DNA of 44,613 nt from sequence record SRR31156797_7337; one strand, written 5' to 3'. The notes under the pieces were generated by a model, which was not told where the DNA came from, did no database searches, and saw nothing but the letters and a program-made list of their open reading frames with translations. The position numbers and the translations under genes were made by a program. The first letter of the stretch is position 1; every line of letters begins with the position of its first letter. Shown in pieces: positions 34,709 to 41,943 of this stretch.

Positions 34709-34738
34709 AAGAGGCCTTGTTTTTCAAGGCCTTTTTTT
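34709..34738 (+). terminator. Intrinsic terminator
   Basis: AGGCCTTG-ttttt-CAAGGCCT plus T run. Confidence 0.85.
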
Positions 34739-34805: not shown

Positions 34806-35294
34806 TTAACGTATTGACTTTATAATGAAAACTGATCCAATACATAAACTCAGAAACTCCATAATTCCAACTATAAAGTATCCAACCGAACCGGTATGAA
34901 ATGCTATACCTTGAATAGAGCCAATAATAACCAATGGAATTAACCATTTCAACTGCTTTCTCTTAACGATGTCTATGATGATTCCAATATATATGGCTAT
35001 TGATGCAAAATAGTTATGAATAATAAGATATTCGGCGAAATAGGTGCTAAATGTCGCAAGGGTAATAAAGCCTATACCTACAAACCATTTGTTATAAAGA
35101 AGCCAACAACCTGTTATCAGTAAAAAAAAAGTATAGAAATAAACTCTGTTTTTGTCCATTCCCATAACTACAGAATAGGTAGGTTTACTTTGCATGAGTA
35201 AATCAACAAGTCCTGTGATGGTAAATCCAAACAATAATATAGCTATCGCAATTTTATTTATTGAATAATTTTTGAAAAATTCGTTGTTTCTCAT
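34806..35294 (-). CDS. Hypothetical membrane protein
   Basis: About six hydrophobic segments; start probably ATG 35294. Confidence 0.7.
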   Translation of the reverse strand: MRNNEFFKNYSINKIAIAILLFGFTITGLVDLLMQSKPTYSVVMGMDKNRVYFYTFFLLITGCWLLYNKWFVGIGFITLATFSTYFAEYLIIHNYFASIAIYIGIIIDIVKRKQLKWLIPLVIIGSIQGIAFHTGSVGYFIVGIMEFLSLCIGSVFIIKSIR

Positions 35295-35666
35295 AGAAAA
35301 TGTCAATTAAAACTCATTTAATGTCATTAGTTGTAAGTGTAACTATTTTATAGACAATCACTTATTTTTATGCTTCTTCTTTTATCTCAACGTCTCATAC
35401 TATGAAAGTATAACGTGATTATTTATTAAAAAAATCTGTTTTATTTTTAAAATGAATTAAAAATTAGAAACCATCAAAACTAAGAAAAATATCACATGAT
35501 AAACGTTTTTAGACAAGAAACATAAATTGCTAATAATGTTTAAATTCGTTCCTACATATCAATTATCTCAAGATATTTTATAACTTTAATGATAGGAAAT
35601 GGAAAGGATTAGAATATTCTGCATTTCATACATTTTTCTTTTATGTCTCTTTCAAATCGAATAAAT

Positions 35667-38378
35667 ATGAAAATATATTTTGAAATTCAATACCATACAA
35701 AGCCTGGACAAAAGGTGGTGGTTTGCGGTTCTACATCAGTTTTGGGAAATTGGAGTTTATCTAATGCAATTAATATGCAATATGAACATGATGGCAAATG
35801 GTTGGCAGAAATAGATGCAGATTCTAAAATTGATAAATTAGAGTACAAGTATTGTTTGATTGATGAGAGTGGCAGAGAACATTGGGAGTGGGGAAAAAAC
35901 CGGGTTCTTTCTCTAAAGGAAATTAAAACAGAAAATGTTTACTTAATCGAAAGTTGGCGTTCACCTTCAAACGAAGAAAAGGTTTTTTATAGTTCTGCAT
36001 TTGAGAAAAATCTAATGAGTCCTTCGCAACAGCTAAAGGCAAAGAAAACCACTAGCAAGAAAAGACTCAGATTTCAAATTCAGGTACCCAGAATCGGCGT
36101 AGACCATCAGCTTTGTATAATCGGAAGTATACCTCAGTTAGGCACATGGGATACTAAAAATCCATTACTTCTAAATTGCGGTGATAACTTTCCGCTTTGG
36201 TCGGTAGAAATTAATGCTTCCACCATTAAAGCGCCTATTTATTACAAATATGGTATTTACGACATCAAGAAAAAAGAATTGGTTACCATAGAAGAAGGAG
36301 CGGACCGTTACTTTGAAATTCCAAAACTAAAAGAAGATGAGTTTCTTTTGACAAAATCAGATGAAAGCTTTCGTTATCCTGTTGGTAATTGGAAAGCAGC
36401 AGGTGTGGCGGTACCTGTATTCTCACTTAGGACCGATAAGGGGTTTGGAGTTGGGGAATTCCCTGATTTAATCGATTTTATTGATTGGTCTAAAAGTGTG
36501 GGCATGAAAATGTTGCAAATTCTTCCCATCAATGAAACGGTCGCATCGCACAACTGGCTTGATTCTTACCCGTATAAATCCATTTCTGTTCTGGCCTTGC
36601 ATCCGCTGTATTTAAATATCCAGAAAATGGGGCTTTTAAAGGATAAAAAACAAATGAAGTTTTTTGAGGAAAAGCAAAAAGAGTATAACGAAAAAAATCA
36701 TGTGCATTACCCTGAAGTTCATCAACTTAAGTCGAAATACTACAAGCTGCTTTTTGACCAGGATAAGGAAAAAGTTTTCAAACAAAAAGACTATATCGCG
36801 TTTTATGAAGCCAATGAATATTGGTTGAAACCATATGCTGCTTTTGCTTATTTGAGAGATAAATATAAAACAGCCGATTTTAGACAATGGGAAAAGTTCA
36901 GTAAGTATGATCCTAAAATGATTGATTCTCTGATAAAATCCCGTGCTAAAAATGACATTGTTATTCATTATTTCATACAGTATCATCTTGATAAACAATT
37001 AAAAGAAGTAAGTCAGTATGCACGTGAACAAGGTATTGTGCTAAAAGGAGATATTCCAATTGGAATTAGTCCCAATAGTGTGGAAGCCTGGACCGAACCG
37101 CATTTATTCAACTTAAATGCACAGGCAGGAGCCCCTCCTGATGATTTTGCAGTGAAAGGACAAAACTGGGGATTTCCAACCTATAATTGGGATAAAATGG
37201 CCGAAGAAGGCTATGCATGGTGGAAAGGTCGTTTAACCAAAATGGCCGAGTATTTCGATGCCTACCGCATTGATCATATTTTAGGTTTCTTTAGAATCTG
37301 GCAAATTCCACTTGATGCTGTGGAAGCCTTATTGGGTTATTTCAATCCGGCCATTTCACTTACAGCAGATGAAATTGAAGGTTATGGTATTCAATTCGAT
37401 TACGAAAGAATGGTTAAACCCCATATTCCATATCATTTGGTTGAAAATAAATTTGGAAAATGGACGCAGGAGGTTATTGATAATTATTTGGATGACAATG
37501 GCTGGGGCCATTTTAAAATGAAGGAAGATTTCGATACGCAGCTTAAAGTAAACCAGTACTTTTTGAATGGAATAGAAGAGGAGGAGCTTACCGATGAAAA
37601 TAGATGGATAAGAGATGGCTTATTCGATTTAATTGCCAATGTAATATTTGTTCAGGCAGGTGAAAACGAATGGCACCCAAGAATATCAATGCACCAAACC
37701 AATTCCTATAATGAATTTGATGAGCACACCAAAAATCAATTGAATGAAATATATGTCGATTATTTCTACAAACGTCAGGATGATTATTGGCGTCAGAAAG
37801 GAATGGAAAAACTGCCAGCAATTGTGGATGCCAGCGATATGTTAATATGTGGAGAAGATTTAGGAATGGTTCCCGATTGCGTACCGCCAGTAATGGACGC
37901 GCTAAATATCCTAAGTTTGGAAATTCAAAGAATGTCTAAAAATCCGAAAAAGAAATATGCACATCCGGCAGATGCACCATATCTTTCTGTCTGTACGACT
38001 TCTACCCACGATATGCCAACTATCAGAGGATGGTGGGAAGAGGACAGAGAAGCCATTCAAGAGTTTTACAATGTTGAATTAGGAAATCATGGTGCTGCAC
38101 CGTTCTTTGCAGAACCAGACGTCTGTAAGCAAATGATTGTTCAGCATTTACATTCACCTGCCATGTGGACTACTTTCCCCATACAGGATCTCATTTCAAT
38201 GGATGGTAATCTGCGATGGGAGAATACGCATGGAGAACAAATAAACCAACCTAGTAATGTACGTCATAAATGGCGTTTCAGAATGCATCAAAGCATCGAT
38301 GATTTGAAAAATGCTAAAGCCTTTAACGAGCTACTTCGAACTTTGATCAAAGAAGCTGGCAGGGATTCGGATTATTAA
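35667..38378 (+). CDS. malQ: 4-alpha-glucanotransferase (GH77) with two N-terminal CBM20 domains
   Basis: Two G-S-x3-LG-x-W CBM20 starts; LKGDIPIG, GAPPDDF, YRIDHILGFFRIW, CGEDLG, TSTHD. Start is 35667 or 35643. Confidence 0.93.
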   Translation: MKIYFEIQYHTKPGQKVVVCGSTSVLGNWSLSNAINMQYEHDGKWLAEIDADSKIDKLEYKYCLIDESGREHWEWGKNRVLSLKEIKTENVYLIESWRSPSNEEKVFYSSAFEKNLMSPSQQLKAKKTTSKKRLRFQIQVPRIGVDHQLCIIGSIPQLGTWDTKNPLLLNCGDNFPLWSVEINASTIKAPIYYKYGIYDIKKKELVTIEEGADRYFEIPKLKEDEFLLTKSDESFRYPVGNWKAAGVAVPVFSLRTDKGFGVGEFPDLIDFIDWSKSVGMKMLQILPINETVASHNWLDSYPYKSISVLALHPLYLNIQKMGLLKDKKQMKFFEEKQKEYNEKNHVHYPEVHQLKSKYYKLLFDQDKEKVFKQKDYIAFYEANEYWLKPYAAFAYLRDKYKTADFRQWEKFSKYDPKMIDSLIKSRAKNDIVIHYFIQYHLDKQLKEVSQYAREQGIVLKGDIPIGISPNSVEAWTEPHLFNLNAQAGAPPDDFAVKGQNWGFPTYNWDKMAEEGYAWWKGRLTKMAEYFDAYRIDHILGFFRIWQIPLDAVEALLGYFNPAISLTADEIEGYGIQFDYERMVKPHIPYHLVENKFGKWTQEVIDNYLDDNGWGHFKMKEDFDTQLKVNQYFLNGIEEEELTDENRWIRDGLFDLIANVIFVQAGENEWHPRISMHQTNSYNEFDEHTKNQLNEIYVDYFYKRQDDYWRQKGMEKLPAIVDASDMLICGEDLGMVPDCVPPVMDALNILSLEIQRMSKNPKKKYAHPADAPYLSVCTTSTHDMPTIRGWWEEDREAIQEFYNVELGNHGAAPFFAEPDVCKQMIVQHLHSPAMWTTFPIQDLISMDGNLRWENTHGEQINQPSNVRHKWRFRMHQSIDDLKNAKAFNELLRTLIKEAGRDSDY

Positions 38379-38642
38379 GGTGTGGTAAATCTAGTTTAGG
38401 AGTCTAATGGTATTTATCTGATATTAAGCTGGTTATGCCATGGGATGTTGATGAATTGGAAAAGTGTCTTATTACTAAAAAAGGTTTGCTTTTTAAGGCC
38501 TTTCAATCGAACCGATTTTAGTTGGAGAGATCATGAATCACTGTTAGGTGATGAGTAATCTTCACTGGGCCAAATTTACGATTTACATTTCAAAAACAAT
38601 TCGTTAACCTTTAGCTCTCAGGTATTTGTTTTAGTTTTCTTT

Positions 38643-39329
38643 TTAGATATGAAATCTAAAACCCAACAAAAAATCCCATCCACTACCATTAAGGTTGTCC
38701 ATAATATCAATCAACTCTTGATTTAAACTTCCTATATTGATATTATGACCATCTGAAGTCAATTCTTTTAATCTATAATTATGGTAGAAGAATGATGAAG
38801 AAATGGTGAACGAAAACCATTTCTTCAAATAAACTTCATACCCGAAAAATGCGGATGGACCAACCGAGCTTTTATAAATCAATATATTATGCGCTGCACC
38901 TTCTATCTGAGATGCATCAAGATCCACTTCATTTTTTAAAGAGAATCTTAACCCTCCTCCAAGATTAATATGACTCTTTTTATTGAAACTAAATTTATAG
39001 GTTACAATCGGATTTAAAACGGTTTTAGAAAATTCACCAGAAGCATTATTCAATTCTGGAACCAATCTTGATTTTACGCTAGATAAGCTAAAGAAAACTT
39101 CAATATTATTATCAAATCGGTATCCTAACCTACCTCCCCAAATTCTACCACCTCCAATAGATAAATCAACATCATCCCCGTCTTCAGTAACAATTCCTGT
39201 TTCAAAACTTTTTCCTAAACCTCCACCTCCATATATTTCTATTGAAAATGGATTTGAAATTACTTGAGATTTTAGTTCAATTCCTGAACAAAAAAGTATT
39301 ATTAATATAGCAAGTGTTATAGTTCTCAT
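38643..39329 (-). CDS. Outer-membrane beta-barrel-like exported protein (putative cassette 2 gene)
   Basis: Signal peptide, Gly/aromatic amphipathic strands, terminal strand GWDFLLGFRFHI; ATG lies 38 bp after the attC-like GTT crossover. Confidence 0.75.
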   Translation of the reverse strand: MRTITLAILIILFCSGIELKSQVISNPFSIEIYGGGGLGKSFETGIVTEDGDDVDLSIGGGRIWGGRLGYRFDNNIEVFFSLSSVKSRLVPELNNASGEFSKTVLNPIVTYKFSFNKKSHINLGGGLRFSLKNEVDLDASQIEGAAHNILIYKSSVGPSAFFGYEVYLKKWFSFTISSSFFYHNYRLKELTSDGHNINIGSLNQELIDIMDNLNGSGWDFLLGFRFHI

Positions 39330-39359
39330 TTTGATGTTTAATTTTTTCTATCAATTAAT

Positions 39360-39494
39360 ATATCTAACGTTGAGTGTATGCGTAGTGGTAGACTTCGGAG
39401 CTTCTCGCTATCAAACAGTGATGGTGTTGATGCGAGCAAAAAGCCTGATAGTTAATACTTTATTCGCCATTACGTATGATACATTGTTAGCGTT
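39360..39494 (-). mobile_element. attC-like recombination site (long imperfect inverted repeat)
   Basis: Coding strand AACGCTAAC-AATGTATCATACGTAATGG...CCACTACGCATACACTCAAC-GTTAGATAT. Nested stems: 39364-68/39486-90, 39374-88/39467-82 with one bulged G, and 39404-17/39425-36. Confidence 0.75.
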
Positions 39495-39518
39495 TCGTGT
39501 TTTTATTTATTAATCTTT

Positions 39519-40613
39519 CTAGCTTTCCTTTTCAAAAAAACCAACTAAGATATCAGACAATACCTGGGGACTTTCAATAGCAGGGCAATGTCCAACATTG
39601 GGAATAATGTGTAGTTCTTTTTTATCCTTGGGTAAATTGGTTAATGCGTTATAAATTAATTCAGCGTGTCCTGTACCAACGACGTAATCTTGTTCGCCCT
39701 GAATAACAATTGTAGGTATCCTTATCTGCTTCAATTCAGATTCAATATTGATGTTGTTGTATGAAGGAGTGTTTCGAAAAGCGGTATTTACGATTTCTGC
39801 CTTTTCTCCAACCTCCGCATATTCCTCTTCTGAATATTTCATCAATCTCATTAAGGCGGAATCCTGTACTACATCTTTAAATGAAATAATCTTAGATGTA
39901 TCTGCGAAATATGCGTTAAATCCAAGCATAGCTGGAACCTCATGTTTCATCCAGTTTACATCTGTATGAAATTGCTCAAAATTACTGTTTTTAATCCGTT
40001 CCAATTCTGCTATAATATGCTCCAACTCAACTTTTTTTTCTTCAGAAATGTCAGTTTGAAGTATTTCAATTGCTCTATTAGTTTCAAAATCGATGAGTGA
40101 ATGGTTTTGATAATTGCTGTTAACTTTTCCATCAATGCAAGCATAAGAAAGTACTTTAGTTTGGTCTGTTAATAGATATAAAAAACCATACATTCCACCC
40201 CATGAAGTTCCCATGATATGGACTTTTTCTTTATCGTATTTTTGTCGCAAGGAATCAATTACAATATCCAAATCTTCAACATATTGCTCTACTGTAAGCA
40301 AGTCTTTATTTCTGCATTCCATAGATTTTCCGCATCCACGTTGATCCAAATATACAACCAGAAATTTATTTTCCAATCCTGGTCCCATTAATTTAATATC
40401 AATACCGGAATATCCACCCGGGCCGCCATGCAAATTAACAATCAAGGGGTTTTCAGGGTTTCCGCGCACTCTCACATAAAGTTCAGATTCTGGTACTTTT
40501 ACCATGATTTCATGGTCAATTTTTTTAATTTTCTCGCTACATGAAAAGGTTGATATTATCAAACCAGTAACACATATTAAGTAAAGAATTTTGAAGACTT
40601 TCAATTTATCCAT
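39519..40613 (-). CDS. Alpha/beta hydrolase lipoprotein, proline iminopeptidase-like (putative cassette 1 gene)
   Basis: LHGGPGG, DQRGCGKS, GTSWGG nucleophile, QGEQD, GHCP; lipobox STFSC; start probably ATG 40613. Confidence 0.88.
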   Translation of the reverse strand: MDKLKVFKILYLICVTGLIISTFSCSEKIKKIDHEIMVKVPESELYVRVRGNPENPLIVNLHGGPGGYSGIDIKLMGPGLENKFLVVYLDQRGCGKSMECRNKDLLTVEQYVEDLDIVIDSLRQKYDKEKVHIMGTSWGGMYGFLYLLTDQTKVLSYACIDGKVNSNYQNHSLIDFETNRAIEILQTDISEEKKVELEHIIAELERIKNSNFEQFHTDVNWMKHEVPAMLGFNAYFADTSKIISFKDVVQDSALMRLMKYSEEEYAEVGEKAEIVNTAFRNTPSYNNINIESELKQIRIPTIVIQGEQDYVVGTGHAELIYNALTNLPKDKKELHIIPNVGHCPAIESPQVLSDILVGFFEKES

Positions 40614-40684
40614 ATTAAATTTTGTTACAACTTTTTGTAAGTTAATTACCTTGAGTATCAATTATGAGAGAAGTTTTCAACATG

Positions 40685-40693
40685 AACGCTAAC
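40685..40693 (-). mobile_element. Putative cassette insertion point (G|TTAGCGTT core; attI-like or secondary site)
   Basis: Exact 9-bp reverse complement of the R''-like box at 39486-39494. Confidence 0.6.
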
Positions 40694-40762
40694 TATTATC
40701 GAAACGAGCATCATGTTCTTCTTGTTGCTTTTAATTTTTGTGTTTTGTTTTCTATTGCACAC

Positions 40763-40787
40763 CAAATTTAAAAATTATTACATCAAA
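40763..40787 (-). promoter_or_regulatory. Promoter upstream of the putative cassette array
   Basis: TAAATTTG (40763-40770) with TTTG (40784-40787); the 13-nt spacer is shorter than typical. Confidence 0.5.
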
Positions 40788-40791
40788 AAAG

Positions 40792-40818
40792 AAAAGGCCT
40801 TGATTTTTACAAGGCCTT
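40792..40818 (-). terminator. Intrinsic terminator of the secA-dapA transcript
   Basis: AAGGCCTTG-attttta-CAAGGCCTT, followed on the minus strand by TTCTTTTTT. Confidence 0.8.
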
Positions 40819-40821
40819 AAT

Positions 40822-41943
40822 TTATAGTTTTTTATGTGTGTCGTTCGGTTTTGTTGAGTCTGTAATGAGTAGATTCTGATCTTCAAGTTTCAAATAATAA
40901 ACTTTACGGTTATTGGCTGCAACTACAATGGTTTTATCAGGTAATACTGCCGGAGAGGCGAATACCTTACCACCGGTATCAAAAGTTGATATGATGCGTC
41001 CTGAACTGGATACTACATATAAGTTATGATCATAACTTCCGATACAAAAAGTAGTATCTGATAAAGCTCTTGGTGAAGCCACTACCCAGCCACCTGTTTT
41101 TATTTTTTTCTTTACATTCCCTTTATGGTCGGCCAGGTAAATGTATTTATCCATGGAGCCAAATACAATGGTGCCATCAGCTAATTGAATGGGAGAGGCG
41201 TGTATTCTGCCTCCGGTTTTTATTTGAAATGCTTTATTGGTTATCTCATCAAATATATAGAGTGACTTATCGTAGCTTCCAATTGCAATTTTTCCGTCTT
41301 GTAATAAGGCAGGTTTACTATGAACAACCCAATGCTTGGTTGGTATGTGCTGTTTAAGCTTCCCTTTTTTGTCAACTACAAATATTTGCTTGTCGTGCCC
41401 TCCAAAAACAACTCGTTCATCATTTATTATGGTAAGCCCCCCATGCACCATCTTTTTAGTGGCAAAGGCATAAGAAGAGCCATCAGGACGTATAAACTGT
41501 AGTTTTTTACGGTTTGTGCCAAAAACAAGGGTTCCATCAGCAAACTGCTCAATTTTACTAAAAATGCGGCCTCCGGGCTTTATTTTATTAATCACATTGC
41601 CAATTTTATCGAAGAAATAGACGTATTTATCATAACATCCGATGGCAATGGTACCATCCATAAGTTCACTGGCTGTGGCATGCACCCAACCGCCTGTACG
41701 AAATGTATTGATTACATTTCCAATTTTATCAAGGAAATAGATATTCTTACGATGACAGCCAAACACTACAGTGGTATCTTTGGTTACAATAGGTTCTCCA
41801 TAGATTTTCCCTCTTGTTTCAAAGATATTCAAAACTTTAATGTCCTTGCTGTGCTGCGCTAACCCTTCATTCCCAAAAGAAATAAAGCATAAGAGTAGAA
41901 TAGTAAATATTTTAGCGTTTGTGGCTAATTTGCTTGATTTCAT
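40822..41943 (-). CDS. Exported PQQ-like beta-propeller repeat protein
   Basis: About eight ~40-aa repeats such as IKTGGRIHASPIQLADGTIVFGSMDKYIYLAD; signal peptide; start overlaps the dapA end. Confidence 0.85.
   Translation of the reverse strand: MKSSKLATNAKIFTILLLCFISFGNEGLAQHSKDIKVLNIFETRGKIYGEPIVTKDTTVVFGCHRKNIYFLDKIGNVINTFRTGGWVHATASELMDGTIAIGCYDKYVYFFDKIGNVINKIKPGGRIFSKIEQFADGTLVFGTNRKKLQFIRPDGSSYAFATKKMVHGGLTIINDERVVFGGHDKQIFVVDKKGKLKQHIPTKHWVVHSKPALLQDGKIAIGSYDKSLYIFDEITNKAFQIKTGGRIHASPIQLADGTIVFGSMDKYIYLADHKGNVKKKIKTGGWVVASPRALSDTTFCIGSYDHNLYVVSSSGRIISTFDTGGKVFASPAVLPDKTIVVAANNRKVYYLKLEDQNLLITDSTKPNDTHKKL

Follow-up and report, generated by a model that had tools for sequence, protein, structure and literature searches.

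As the minus strand between malQ and dapA reads like a short array of integron cassettes with no integrase beside it, we asked whether its two genes are cassettes and, if so, to which recombinase system they belong. The window, meaning the whole stretch of 44,613 nt that was analysed, carries in minus-strand order a -7-type promoter box, a G/TT trinucleotide (the slash marks the crossover), a hydrolase gene, a site bounded by AAC and GTT and a gene for a 228-aa protein. The sequence and its list of open reading frames bear out the order, from promoter to beta-barrel gene, that an earlier note on this DNA had described (Table 1). The promoter box is what we take to be the Bacteroidota type of -7 element; a sigma-70 promoter scan gave 11 sites where 12.5 were expected, its model being uninformative for Bacteroidota promoters. 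No recombinase gene is present among the open reading frames of the window, and no Rfam family reached its gathering score there. Two landmarks of the earlier note have to be redrawn. The terminator that it gave to secA-dapA does exist, and it belongs to the beta-propeller gene downstream of dapA. The malQ gene, used there as a flank, is not a stable neighbour and sits within a 6-kb insert. A 166-aa open reading frame in the same insert (34806-35306) was tried as a further cassette and rejected: an attI-like motif lies upstream of it, but it has no complementary end.

Table 1. Features of the locus in window coordinates.
Feature	Position	Strand	Basis or remark
Look-alike terminator copy; left border of 6-kb insert	34711-34733	.	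motif search
Six-kb insert: 166-aa ORF, malQ, both cassettes, promoter segment	34740-40790	.	between ahpC and beta-propeller gene
Decayed site remnant (inner part); hairpin-site family with longer sites, ~200 bp or more	38480-38623	-	BLAST to G414 and G415 sites
Outer-membrane beta-barrel gene, 228 aa; cargo of probable cassette 2	38643-39329	-	protein clusters
Second crossover G/TT, cassette 2 start	39366-39368	-	sequence
attC-like hairpin site, 123 nt	39366-39488	-	folds on bottom (window +) strand
Cassette 1, 1325 bp: leader, hydrolase gene, tail, hairpin site	39368-40692	-	borders and homology
R''-like box, exact complement of 9 bases at first crossover	39486-39494	-	homology with other cassette copies stops here
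Alpha/beta-hydrolase gene, 364 aa, ATG at 40613	39519-40613	-	Pfam; 26 related loci
First crossover G/TT (attI side, cassette 1 start), G at 40693	40691-40693	-	leader homology with L004, L001 and L003 starts at G
Probable orphan promoter-attI segment, 88 bp	40693-40780	-	likeness to G412 post-recombinase segment
Bacteroidota-type -7 promoter box, candidate Pc	40763-40770	-	sequence
Terminator of beta-propeller gene; right border of 6-kb insert	40794-40818	.	motif twice in window, once at G412 empty site
Beta-propeller gene, follows dapA	40822-41943		terminator 40794-40818 ends this gene

The hairpin between the two genes, put at ~130 bp by the earlier note, is 123 nt long and folds on the bottom strand only, that is, opposite to transcription. 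For the bottom strand the folding energy is -17.0 kcal/mol (z -2.4), a value equalled or bettered by 2 of 200 shuffles; for the top strand it is -11.7 kcal/mol (z -1.1), equalled or bettered by 29 of 200. The stem of this site has one bulge, of 1 or 3 nt depending on the register. The 9 bases that run from the first G of the hydrolase unit are the exact complement of the 9 bases that end in AAC after the gene; as a measure of chance, a complement at a distance of 0.3-2 kb downstream exists for 22 of the 1510 GTT 9-mers of the window. A BLAST search showed a site with about 80-82% identity behind an unrelated gene on a Persicobacter plasmid, in an array of 20 sites inside 16 kb, and matches of a covariance model across genomes confirm that the hairpin belongs to a multi-copy family that is found behind unrelated open reading frames, as had been expected. 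The window site scores 85 bits with that model (R2), to whose training set it belonged. Could the hairpin nevertheless be a non-recombining repeat between accessory genes, such as a terminator, a REP-like or an RNA-like element? We find this barely credible, although among the joints listed for the contigs of four runs there is no excision joint across either cassette and hence no direct sign of excision. Such a repeat leaves unexplained why each gene unit opens with bases complementary to the box behind its own gene and why gene homology begins at G/TT, and the transcribed strand folds worse than the opposite one.

Copies of the hydrolase gene elsewhere allow the borders of its unit to be placed. 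The protein belongs to Pfam Abhydrolase_1 (E 1.7e-23), resembles proline iminopeptidases at scores under the family cut-offs and has relatives at 26 loci in Bacteroidia, Cytophagia, Flavobacteriia and Ignavibacteria. In Lunatimonas (L004), the hydrolase starts at the same G/TT behind a different hairpin and forms a complete cassette with the same AAC box and a full site. At two further loci (L001, L003) it also starts at G/TT, with attI-like sequence in front, and at most of the more distant related loci no site adjoins the gene. Homology with the window stops at the AAC box (39479-39487) in six of the seven best DNA matches and at 39501 in the seventh; contigs from other organisms, when aligned to the window, also diverge from the hairpin at 39488-39489. 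In a segment-wise comparison of three copies, identity is 86-90% for the gene, 78-86% for the non-coding tail that leads to AAC and 39-56% for the hairpin body, with a random baseline of 48%. As homology among the copies ends at AAC, the hairpin bodies appear to have been exchanged, and the segment identities together with the Persicobacter-like hairpin indicate that gene and hairpin body have different histories that meet at AAC. The copies of the same gene and the complementarity of its ends support the proposal of cassettes with attC-like sites and borders at G/TT, and the hydrolase unit is very probably, the barrel unit probably, a mobile cassette of the integron style.

The barrel gene starts less than 40 bp past the second GTT. 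Its protein matches no Pfam or NCBIfam family and falls among outer-membrane beta-barrel clusters of the Atlas at 0.98. Three close proteins come without gene context, and a search of 401 genomes gave distant matches in four only, none of them with a site nearby, so that the cassette status of the barrel gene rests on its own borders. An 8-base complement that overlaps the stop codon may be due to chance, because barrel homologs end in the same residues. Behind the gene lies a decayed second site, absent from the earlier note; both sites of the window, the intact and the decayed one, were detected by our own covariance model and BLAST. The decayed segment (38623-38480) shares 89% identity across 62 nt with G414 and G415 sites and 75% across 102 nt with another G415 site. 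This longer site family is intact in G266, G414 and G415, where it runs from AAC to (G)TT between genes. In the window both outer arms are eroded and the fold is lost (z -0.5). A decayed site in this position suggests that the barrel gene is probably an older, fixed cassette.

To describe the site family across Bacteroidota we used covariance models, the first built from 12 sites and the second (R2) from 59 matches; a regular expression missed known sites, and stem scoring found them among false hits. In a plain MAFFT alignment of the 12 sites, 12 of 14 predicted pairs show compensatory changes. The model-fitted alignment of 59 sites, a fit that leans to structure, has 90.3% of its cells paired, compared with 62.5% for shuffled and 37-52% for slid sequences, and 18 of its 21 pairs covary, under the same leaning. 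Within this alignment one pair is G.T in 57 of 58 sequences and can form on the bottom strand only, and the stem lacks an extrahelical base in 38 of 59 sites. A bubble of 5-7 nt against 3 nt lies beside the crossover in 53 of 59 sites, and the bottom strand is more stable than the top in 45 of 55. In arrays, 47 of 62 pairs of neighbouring sites show complementarity between the bases that follow one G/TT and the box in front of the next site, counted at ≥6 of 7 positions (mean 5.6 of 7, compared with 2.4 in 2000 shuffles); this count excludes pairs separated by more than 3.5 kb, starts without GTT and sites that have an intron end or an IS91 end in front of them. Sites occur in 103 of 150 Bacteroidales genomes and in 12 of the 13 genomes of the closest family, and the longest array set numbers 139 sites (G147). 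A search of viral contigs with one site motif gave 0 matches, and R2 had no match on class 1 and class 2 integron loci, a weak control as these loci carry at most one attC.

For the tyrosine recombinase that the earlier note had postulated without a name, the relatives offer a candidate: their arrays are headed by a non-IntI tyrosine recombinase of 360-480 aa that keeps the catalytic residues and lacks the roughly 35-40-residue insertion (I2 region) of IntI. It scores 204-206 bits against the IntI model TIGR02249, whose cut-off is 265, and shares the N-terminal SAM-like family PF13495 with IntI; in a quick tree it forms a group with short IS91-linked recombinases that lies next to IntI and away from XerC/D. 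With presence called at E 1e-85, a threshold of our own choosing, the enzyme is found in 56 of 150 Bacteroidales genomes, and in the closest family it is present in G266, G412 and G414 at E <1e-100. Sites are present in 52 of the 56 genomes with it and in 51 of the 94 without (odds ratio 11, computed with kinship and assembly gaps ignored), which means that 51 genomes have sites without a detected recombinase. Among 20 regions chosen by sequence extent, ten have sites downstream, four end within ~300 bp and six have none downstream. All 51 downstream sites in those ten regions are co-oriented with the recombinase gene, and the first G/TT follows the recombinase stop codon by ~90-230 bp in most regions. 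Pfam HARP matches the N-terminus weakly in 6 of 30 members (best E 1.1e-5, the others up to 0.1), as does the SMARCAL1 HARP structure 4O66 (E 0.0029); a fold search with the N-terminus gave T4 UvsW as best match (Z 5.7, rmsd 2.4 over 59 residues) and 4O66 at Z 3.6. These weak similarities hint that the extra N-terminal domain of the recombinase may be HARP-like. Judged from sequence, both cassette genes belong to a common Bacteroidota gene-capture system with a non-IntI recombinase.

The same data bear on the question whether the locus is a classical CALIN, with ordinary attC cassettes relying on an IntI that is encoded elsewhere or has been lost. Its G/TT and AAC ends, its strand bias and the targeting of its sites by introns are as described for attC, and one Bacteroidota genome (G004, giving the one match in the first five genomes) has an IntI-like gene over the TIGR02249 cut-off. 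In that protein, however, serine replaces the first catalytic arginine, and the surrounding 20 kb contain no site. No match exceeded the cut-off in the 13 family genomes or in five long chromosomes with 17-139 sites, and the majority of sites lack the extrahelical base. A classical CALIN is thus highly improbable.

Other elements also use these sites. The AAC box is abutted by the end of a group II intron in 10 of 55 sites and by the end of an IS91-recombinase element in 5 of 55. Such elements could explain the hairpin exchange at AAC: recombination between intron or IS91 inserts could swap hairpin bodies, as could action of the recombinase at the AAC end. One may ask, then, whether the sites are moved by, or are mainly targets of, the short IS91-linked recombinase, which groups with the array-head enzymes, or of group II introns. 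We consider this very unlikely, given that long arrays begin at attI behind the long recombinase, that G147 has 139 sites and no IS91-type recombinase among the model-search matches listed, and that IS91 units themselves start at G/TT, like cargo.

If the array-head recombinase serves the sites, does the window also keep a docking site for it? Among named relatives, the one nearest to the neighbouring propeller protein comes from Salinivirgaceae, and the closest genome (G412) shares 76-82% DNA identity. From the recombinase stop codon to the first G/TT there are 88 bp in G412 and 87 bp in G266. The 88 bp upstream of the hydrolase cassette agree with the G412 segment at 47 of 87 ungapped positions, against a background of 24.9, and none of 672 window sites scores as high. 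The promoter part contributes 16 of the 47 identities; with this part excluded, 31 of 68 positions remain identical to G412 (2 of 672 as high) and 27 of 68 to G266 (14 of 672 as high). A GTT-purine exactly 69 nt past the promoter box is found for one of 349 boxes, namely at the window junction. A spaced pattern, made after seeing the window, G412 and G266 segments, occurs in 3 of 13 family genomes and always right behind the recombinase. On these comparisons, the 88-bp segment is likely homologous to attI.

A different reading of the junction keeps the cassette system and dispenses with attI, the cassettes having been inserted in trans at a secondary G/TT behind a resident promoter. The promoter motif is indeed partly generic, with two further copies in the window, and in G412 a similar promoter that is convergent with malQ has no attI. 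Against a profile of 20 attI sites, picked by hand from other families, the junction has a low score of -0.8, which lies in the top 2.2% of 677 window sites and exceeds 2 of 20 leave-one-out attI scores. Dispersed cassette heads in G111 and G147, moreover, share only a short core with their own attI. The likeness to the G412 attI that persists without the promoter part, at the same 88-bp spacing, and the single promoter box with GTT-purine at the right distance nevertheless speak against insertion at a secondary site. We therefore regard it as unlikely: rather than a secondary site hit at random, the upstream junction is probably a genuine copy of attI, promoter included.

Dispersed insertion, as the earlier note had envisaged it, has a counterpart in complete chromosomes, where recombinase-less dispersed arrays are real. 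In the complete chromosome G003, sites are found at six places besides the one array that has a recombinase at its head. Its attI occurs six times, and the five extra copies, all without a recombinase, each head a G/TT cassette start. These copies are ~190-bp modules that join a stretch resembling the recombinase promoter to one resembling the 3' end of the recombinase gene and attI. In G031, copies of attI precede two of three traceable dispersed starts; in G266, no satellite copy of its attI was found. Together with the short cores in G111 and G147, the copies in G003 and G031 indicate that both satellites and secondary sites occur.

At the level of the locus, the propeller gene converges directly on ahpC over one terminator in four of six family genomes, which lack the 6-kb insert, and has different neighbours in the other two. 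A metagenome contig, which resembles the G414 species, agrees with the empty locus; a metagenome scan with the propeller alignment yielded no confirmed case. In the window, 6 kb including malQ lie between two look-alike terminators. In G412, malQ is found elsewhere and is followed by other genes without sites, with no orthologous array. As the insert lies between look-alike terminators, the breakpoints of the locus are not at GTT. The expectation of breakpoints at G/TT thus holds for the cassette borders and fails for the locus, whose empty form breaks at the duplicated terminator in those four relatives. Several events are stacked at the locus, and their order is beyond the reach of relatives this distant.

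Overall, the locus is a real, small, recombinase-less platform of an integron-like system and not an IntI integron. We consider it reasonably likely that it is an orphan platform of the Bacteroidota system in the full sense, with a promoter, an attI-type docking site, an intact hydrolase cassette, a decayed barrel cassette and no recombinase in cis. A complete platform consists of the recombinase gene, then a promoter and attI ~90-230 bp past its stop codon, then the cassettes, all on one strand. Starting from the anatomy, covariation, borders and association observed here, we infer the chemistry and the activity at this locus as follows. The substrate would be the folded bottom strand of a cassette site, made up of an outer arm of 9 paired bp, the bubble of 5-7 nt against 3 nt and the inner stem that carries the fixed G.T wobble. 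One strand would be exchanged at G/TT with attI or with another site, and replication would resolve the product as in integrons. With no IntI insertion in the recombinase and no extrahelical bases in most sites, the choice of strand must be made otherwise; the G.T wobbles and the HARP-like N-terminal domain are candidates to take the place of extrahelical bases and I2. Incoming cassettes would join next to the promoter, so that the hydrolase would have arrived after the barrel gene. The platform may either have lost its recombinase or be a satellite copy served in trans, as the five G003 copies appear to be.

More tentatively, the system may be a second kind of integron in Bacteroidota: a HARP-fused recombinase without I2, hairpins marked by G.T, promoter-attI satellites served in trans by one enzyme, and an exchange of hairpin bodies at AAC that gives imported genes host-type sites, with the window as a live satellite. 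We hold this wider proposal to be possible rather than probable. If the enzyme works without the IntI insertion, it would be a second solution to recombining folded single strands and would put to the test how Xer-like enzymes gave rise to integron integrases. With satellite attI modules, CALIN-like fragments would become working expression slots rather than debris. An exchange of hairpin bodies at AAC would bear on the origin of cassette sites, as the pages of PMC4889954 on which we draw state that how cassettes acquire their sites is unknown, and the copies described here supply concrete pairs of gene and site. A published survey, in the portion used here, records almost no complete integrons in Bacteroidetes (PMC9024848), which contrasts with sites in about two-thirds of the Bacteroidales genomes (103 of 150). 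Our literature search, which covered the main text of accessible papers, found no description of this Bacteroidota system.

The nearest known systems are integrons, above all sedentary chromosomal ones. Both have one-gene units with G/TT borders, sites bounded by AAC and GTT that fold on the bottom strand, complementary cassette starts and ends, and a promoter before the docking site. Arrays of more than 100 sites are found here too (G147), and the recombinases share the family PF13495. In integrons, according to the sections of PMC4792948 cited here, the crossover is at AAC on the bottom strand, extrahelical bases and I2 set the choice of strand, and resolution is replicative. The Bacteroidota recombinase, in contrast, lacks the IntI insertion, stays below the TIGR02249 cut-off and has an additional N-terminal domain. 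Its gene points the same way as the array, with attI behind the stop codon; most of the sites have no extrahelical base and instead carry a fixed G.T wobble. CALINs, as outlined in the excerpted text of Cury 2016 (PMC4889954), likewise hold cassettes without an adjacent recombinase, either served in trans or as remnants, whereas the window keeps a promoter, probably attI and one intact site of a non-IntI system. Group IIC-attC introns, in the available part of PMC3001079, likewise enter the bottom strand at the AAC box, opposite to the cassettes, as group II introns do at 10 of 55 sites here; the window, in contrast, has no intron. Integration of the CTX phage by XerCD, in the extracts of PMC4792948, likewise uses a folded single strand without extrahelical bases and an enzyme without the I2 domain. 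The Bacteroidota enzyme differs in being dedicated, in standing apart from XerC/D and in having its own docking site and cassette arrays.

A pair of look-alike terminators (window 34711-34733 and 40794-40818) borders exactly the 6 kb absent from relatives, which carry a single terminator copy at this place. This arrangement suggests the terminator was duplicated when the 6 kb inserted. In G412, the closest genome, malQ lies in a different context, where a frameshift in that assembly splits it. Upstream of the 166-aa ORF, we detected an attI-core-like motif with GTT (window 35343-35352); a search for a complementary end of this ORF's unit found none.

Two open reading frames of the 6-kb insert
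Feature	Window coordinates	Remark
malQ	35643-38378	within the insert
166-aa membrane protein ORF	34806-35306	no family

Site lengths from ∼55 to >200 nt coexist. Long-type sites contain an internal −7 promoter-like box directed downstream (loci L293, L294, L295 and L298; window 38578-38571), which could drive the following cassette. At the other extreme, the next cassette in a Lunatimonas locus (L004, 7247-9300), with an AAA ATPase gene and a second gene that we take to be RloB-like, ends in a short site of ∼55 nt. Several genomes also carry tandem paralogs of the hydrolase without adjoining sites (L015, L018 and L022).

Most of the 139 sites in G147 lie in a super-array at ∼3.68-3.96 Mb of contig C1. 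The recombinase of this genome is located at the contig start; on a circular chromosome it would stand at the head of the array. A search of G147 found no IntI above the cut-off. In G003, on contig C1, cassettes are headed by each of five recombinase-less modules of ∼190 bp (at 738000, 1199114, 1808483, 3352345 and 4776561; L178, L179 and L181-L183), in which recombinase-promoter-like sequence is fused to a recombinase 3′ end and attI. The modules look like platform copies with an internal deletion. In the window's closest family, the recombinase has 481 aa (L296 and L298; G412 and G266), and its N-terminus exceeds that of most members by ∼110 aa; the added stretch may be a duplicate of the extra domain. 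An IntI-like gene in G004 (L027, contig C57) has the insertion, but serine replaces the first catalytic arginine and no sites lie close to the gene; this integrase may be inactive or repurposed.

Other elements also reside at the sites. Group II introns, some twinned with a second intron, occupy the AAC box in opposite orientation to the cassettes in G003 (L068, L069, L070, L111, L112 and L118) and G001 (L058, L087 and L107). A short tyrosine recombinase and an IS91-type transposase together form units (L033, L034 and L072; ∼12 copies in G111) that start at the G|TT after one site and run to the AAC of the following site, in the manner of self-moving cassettes.
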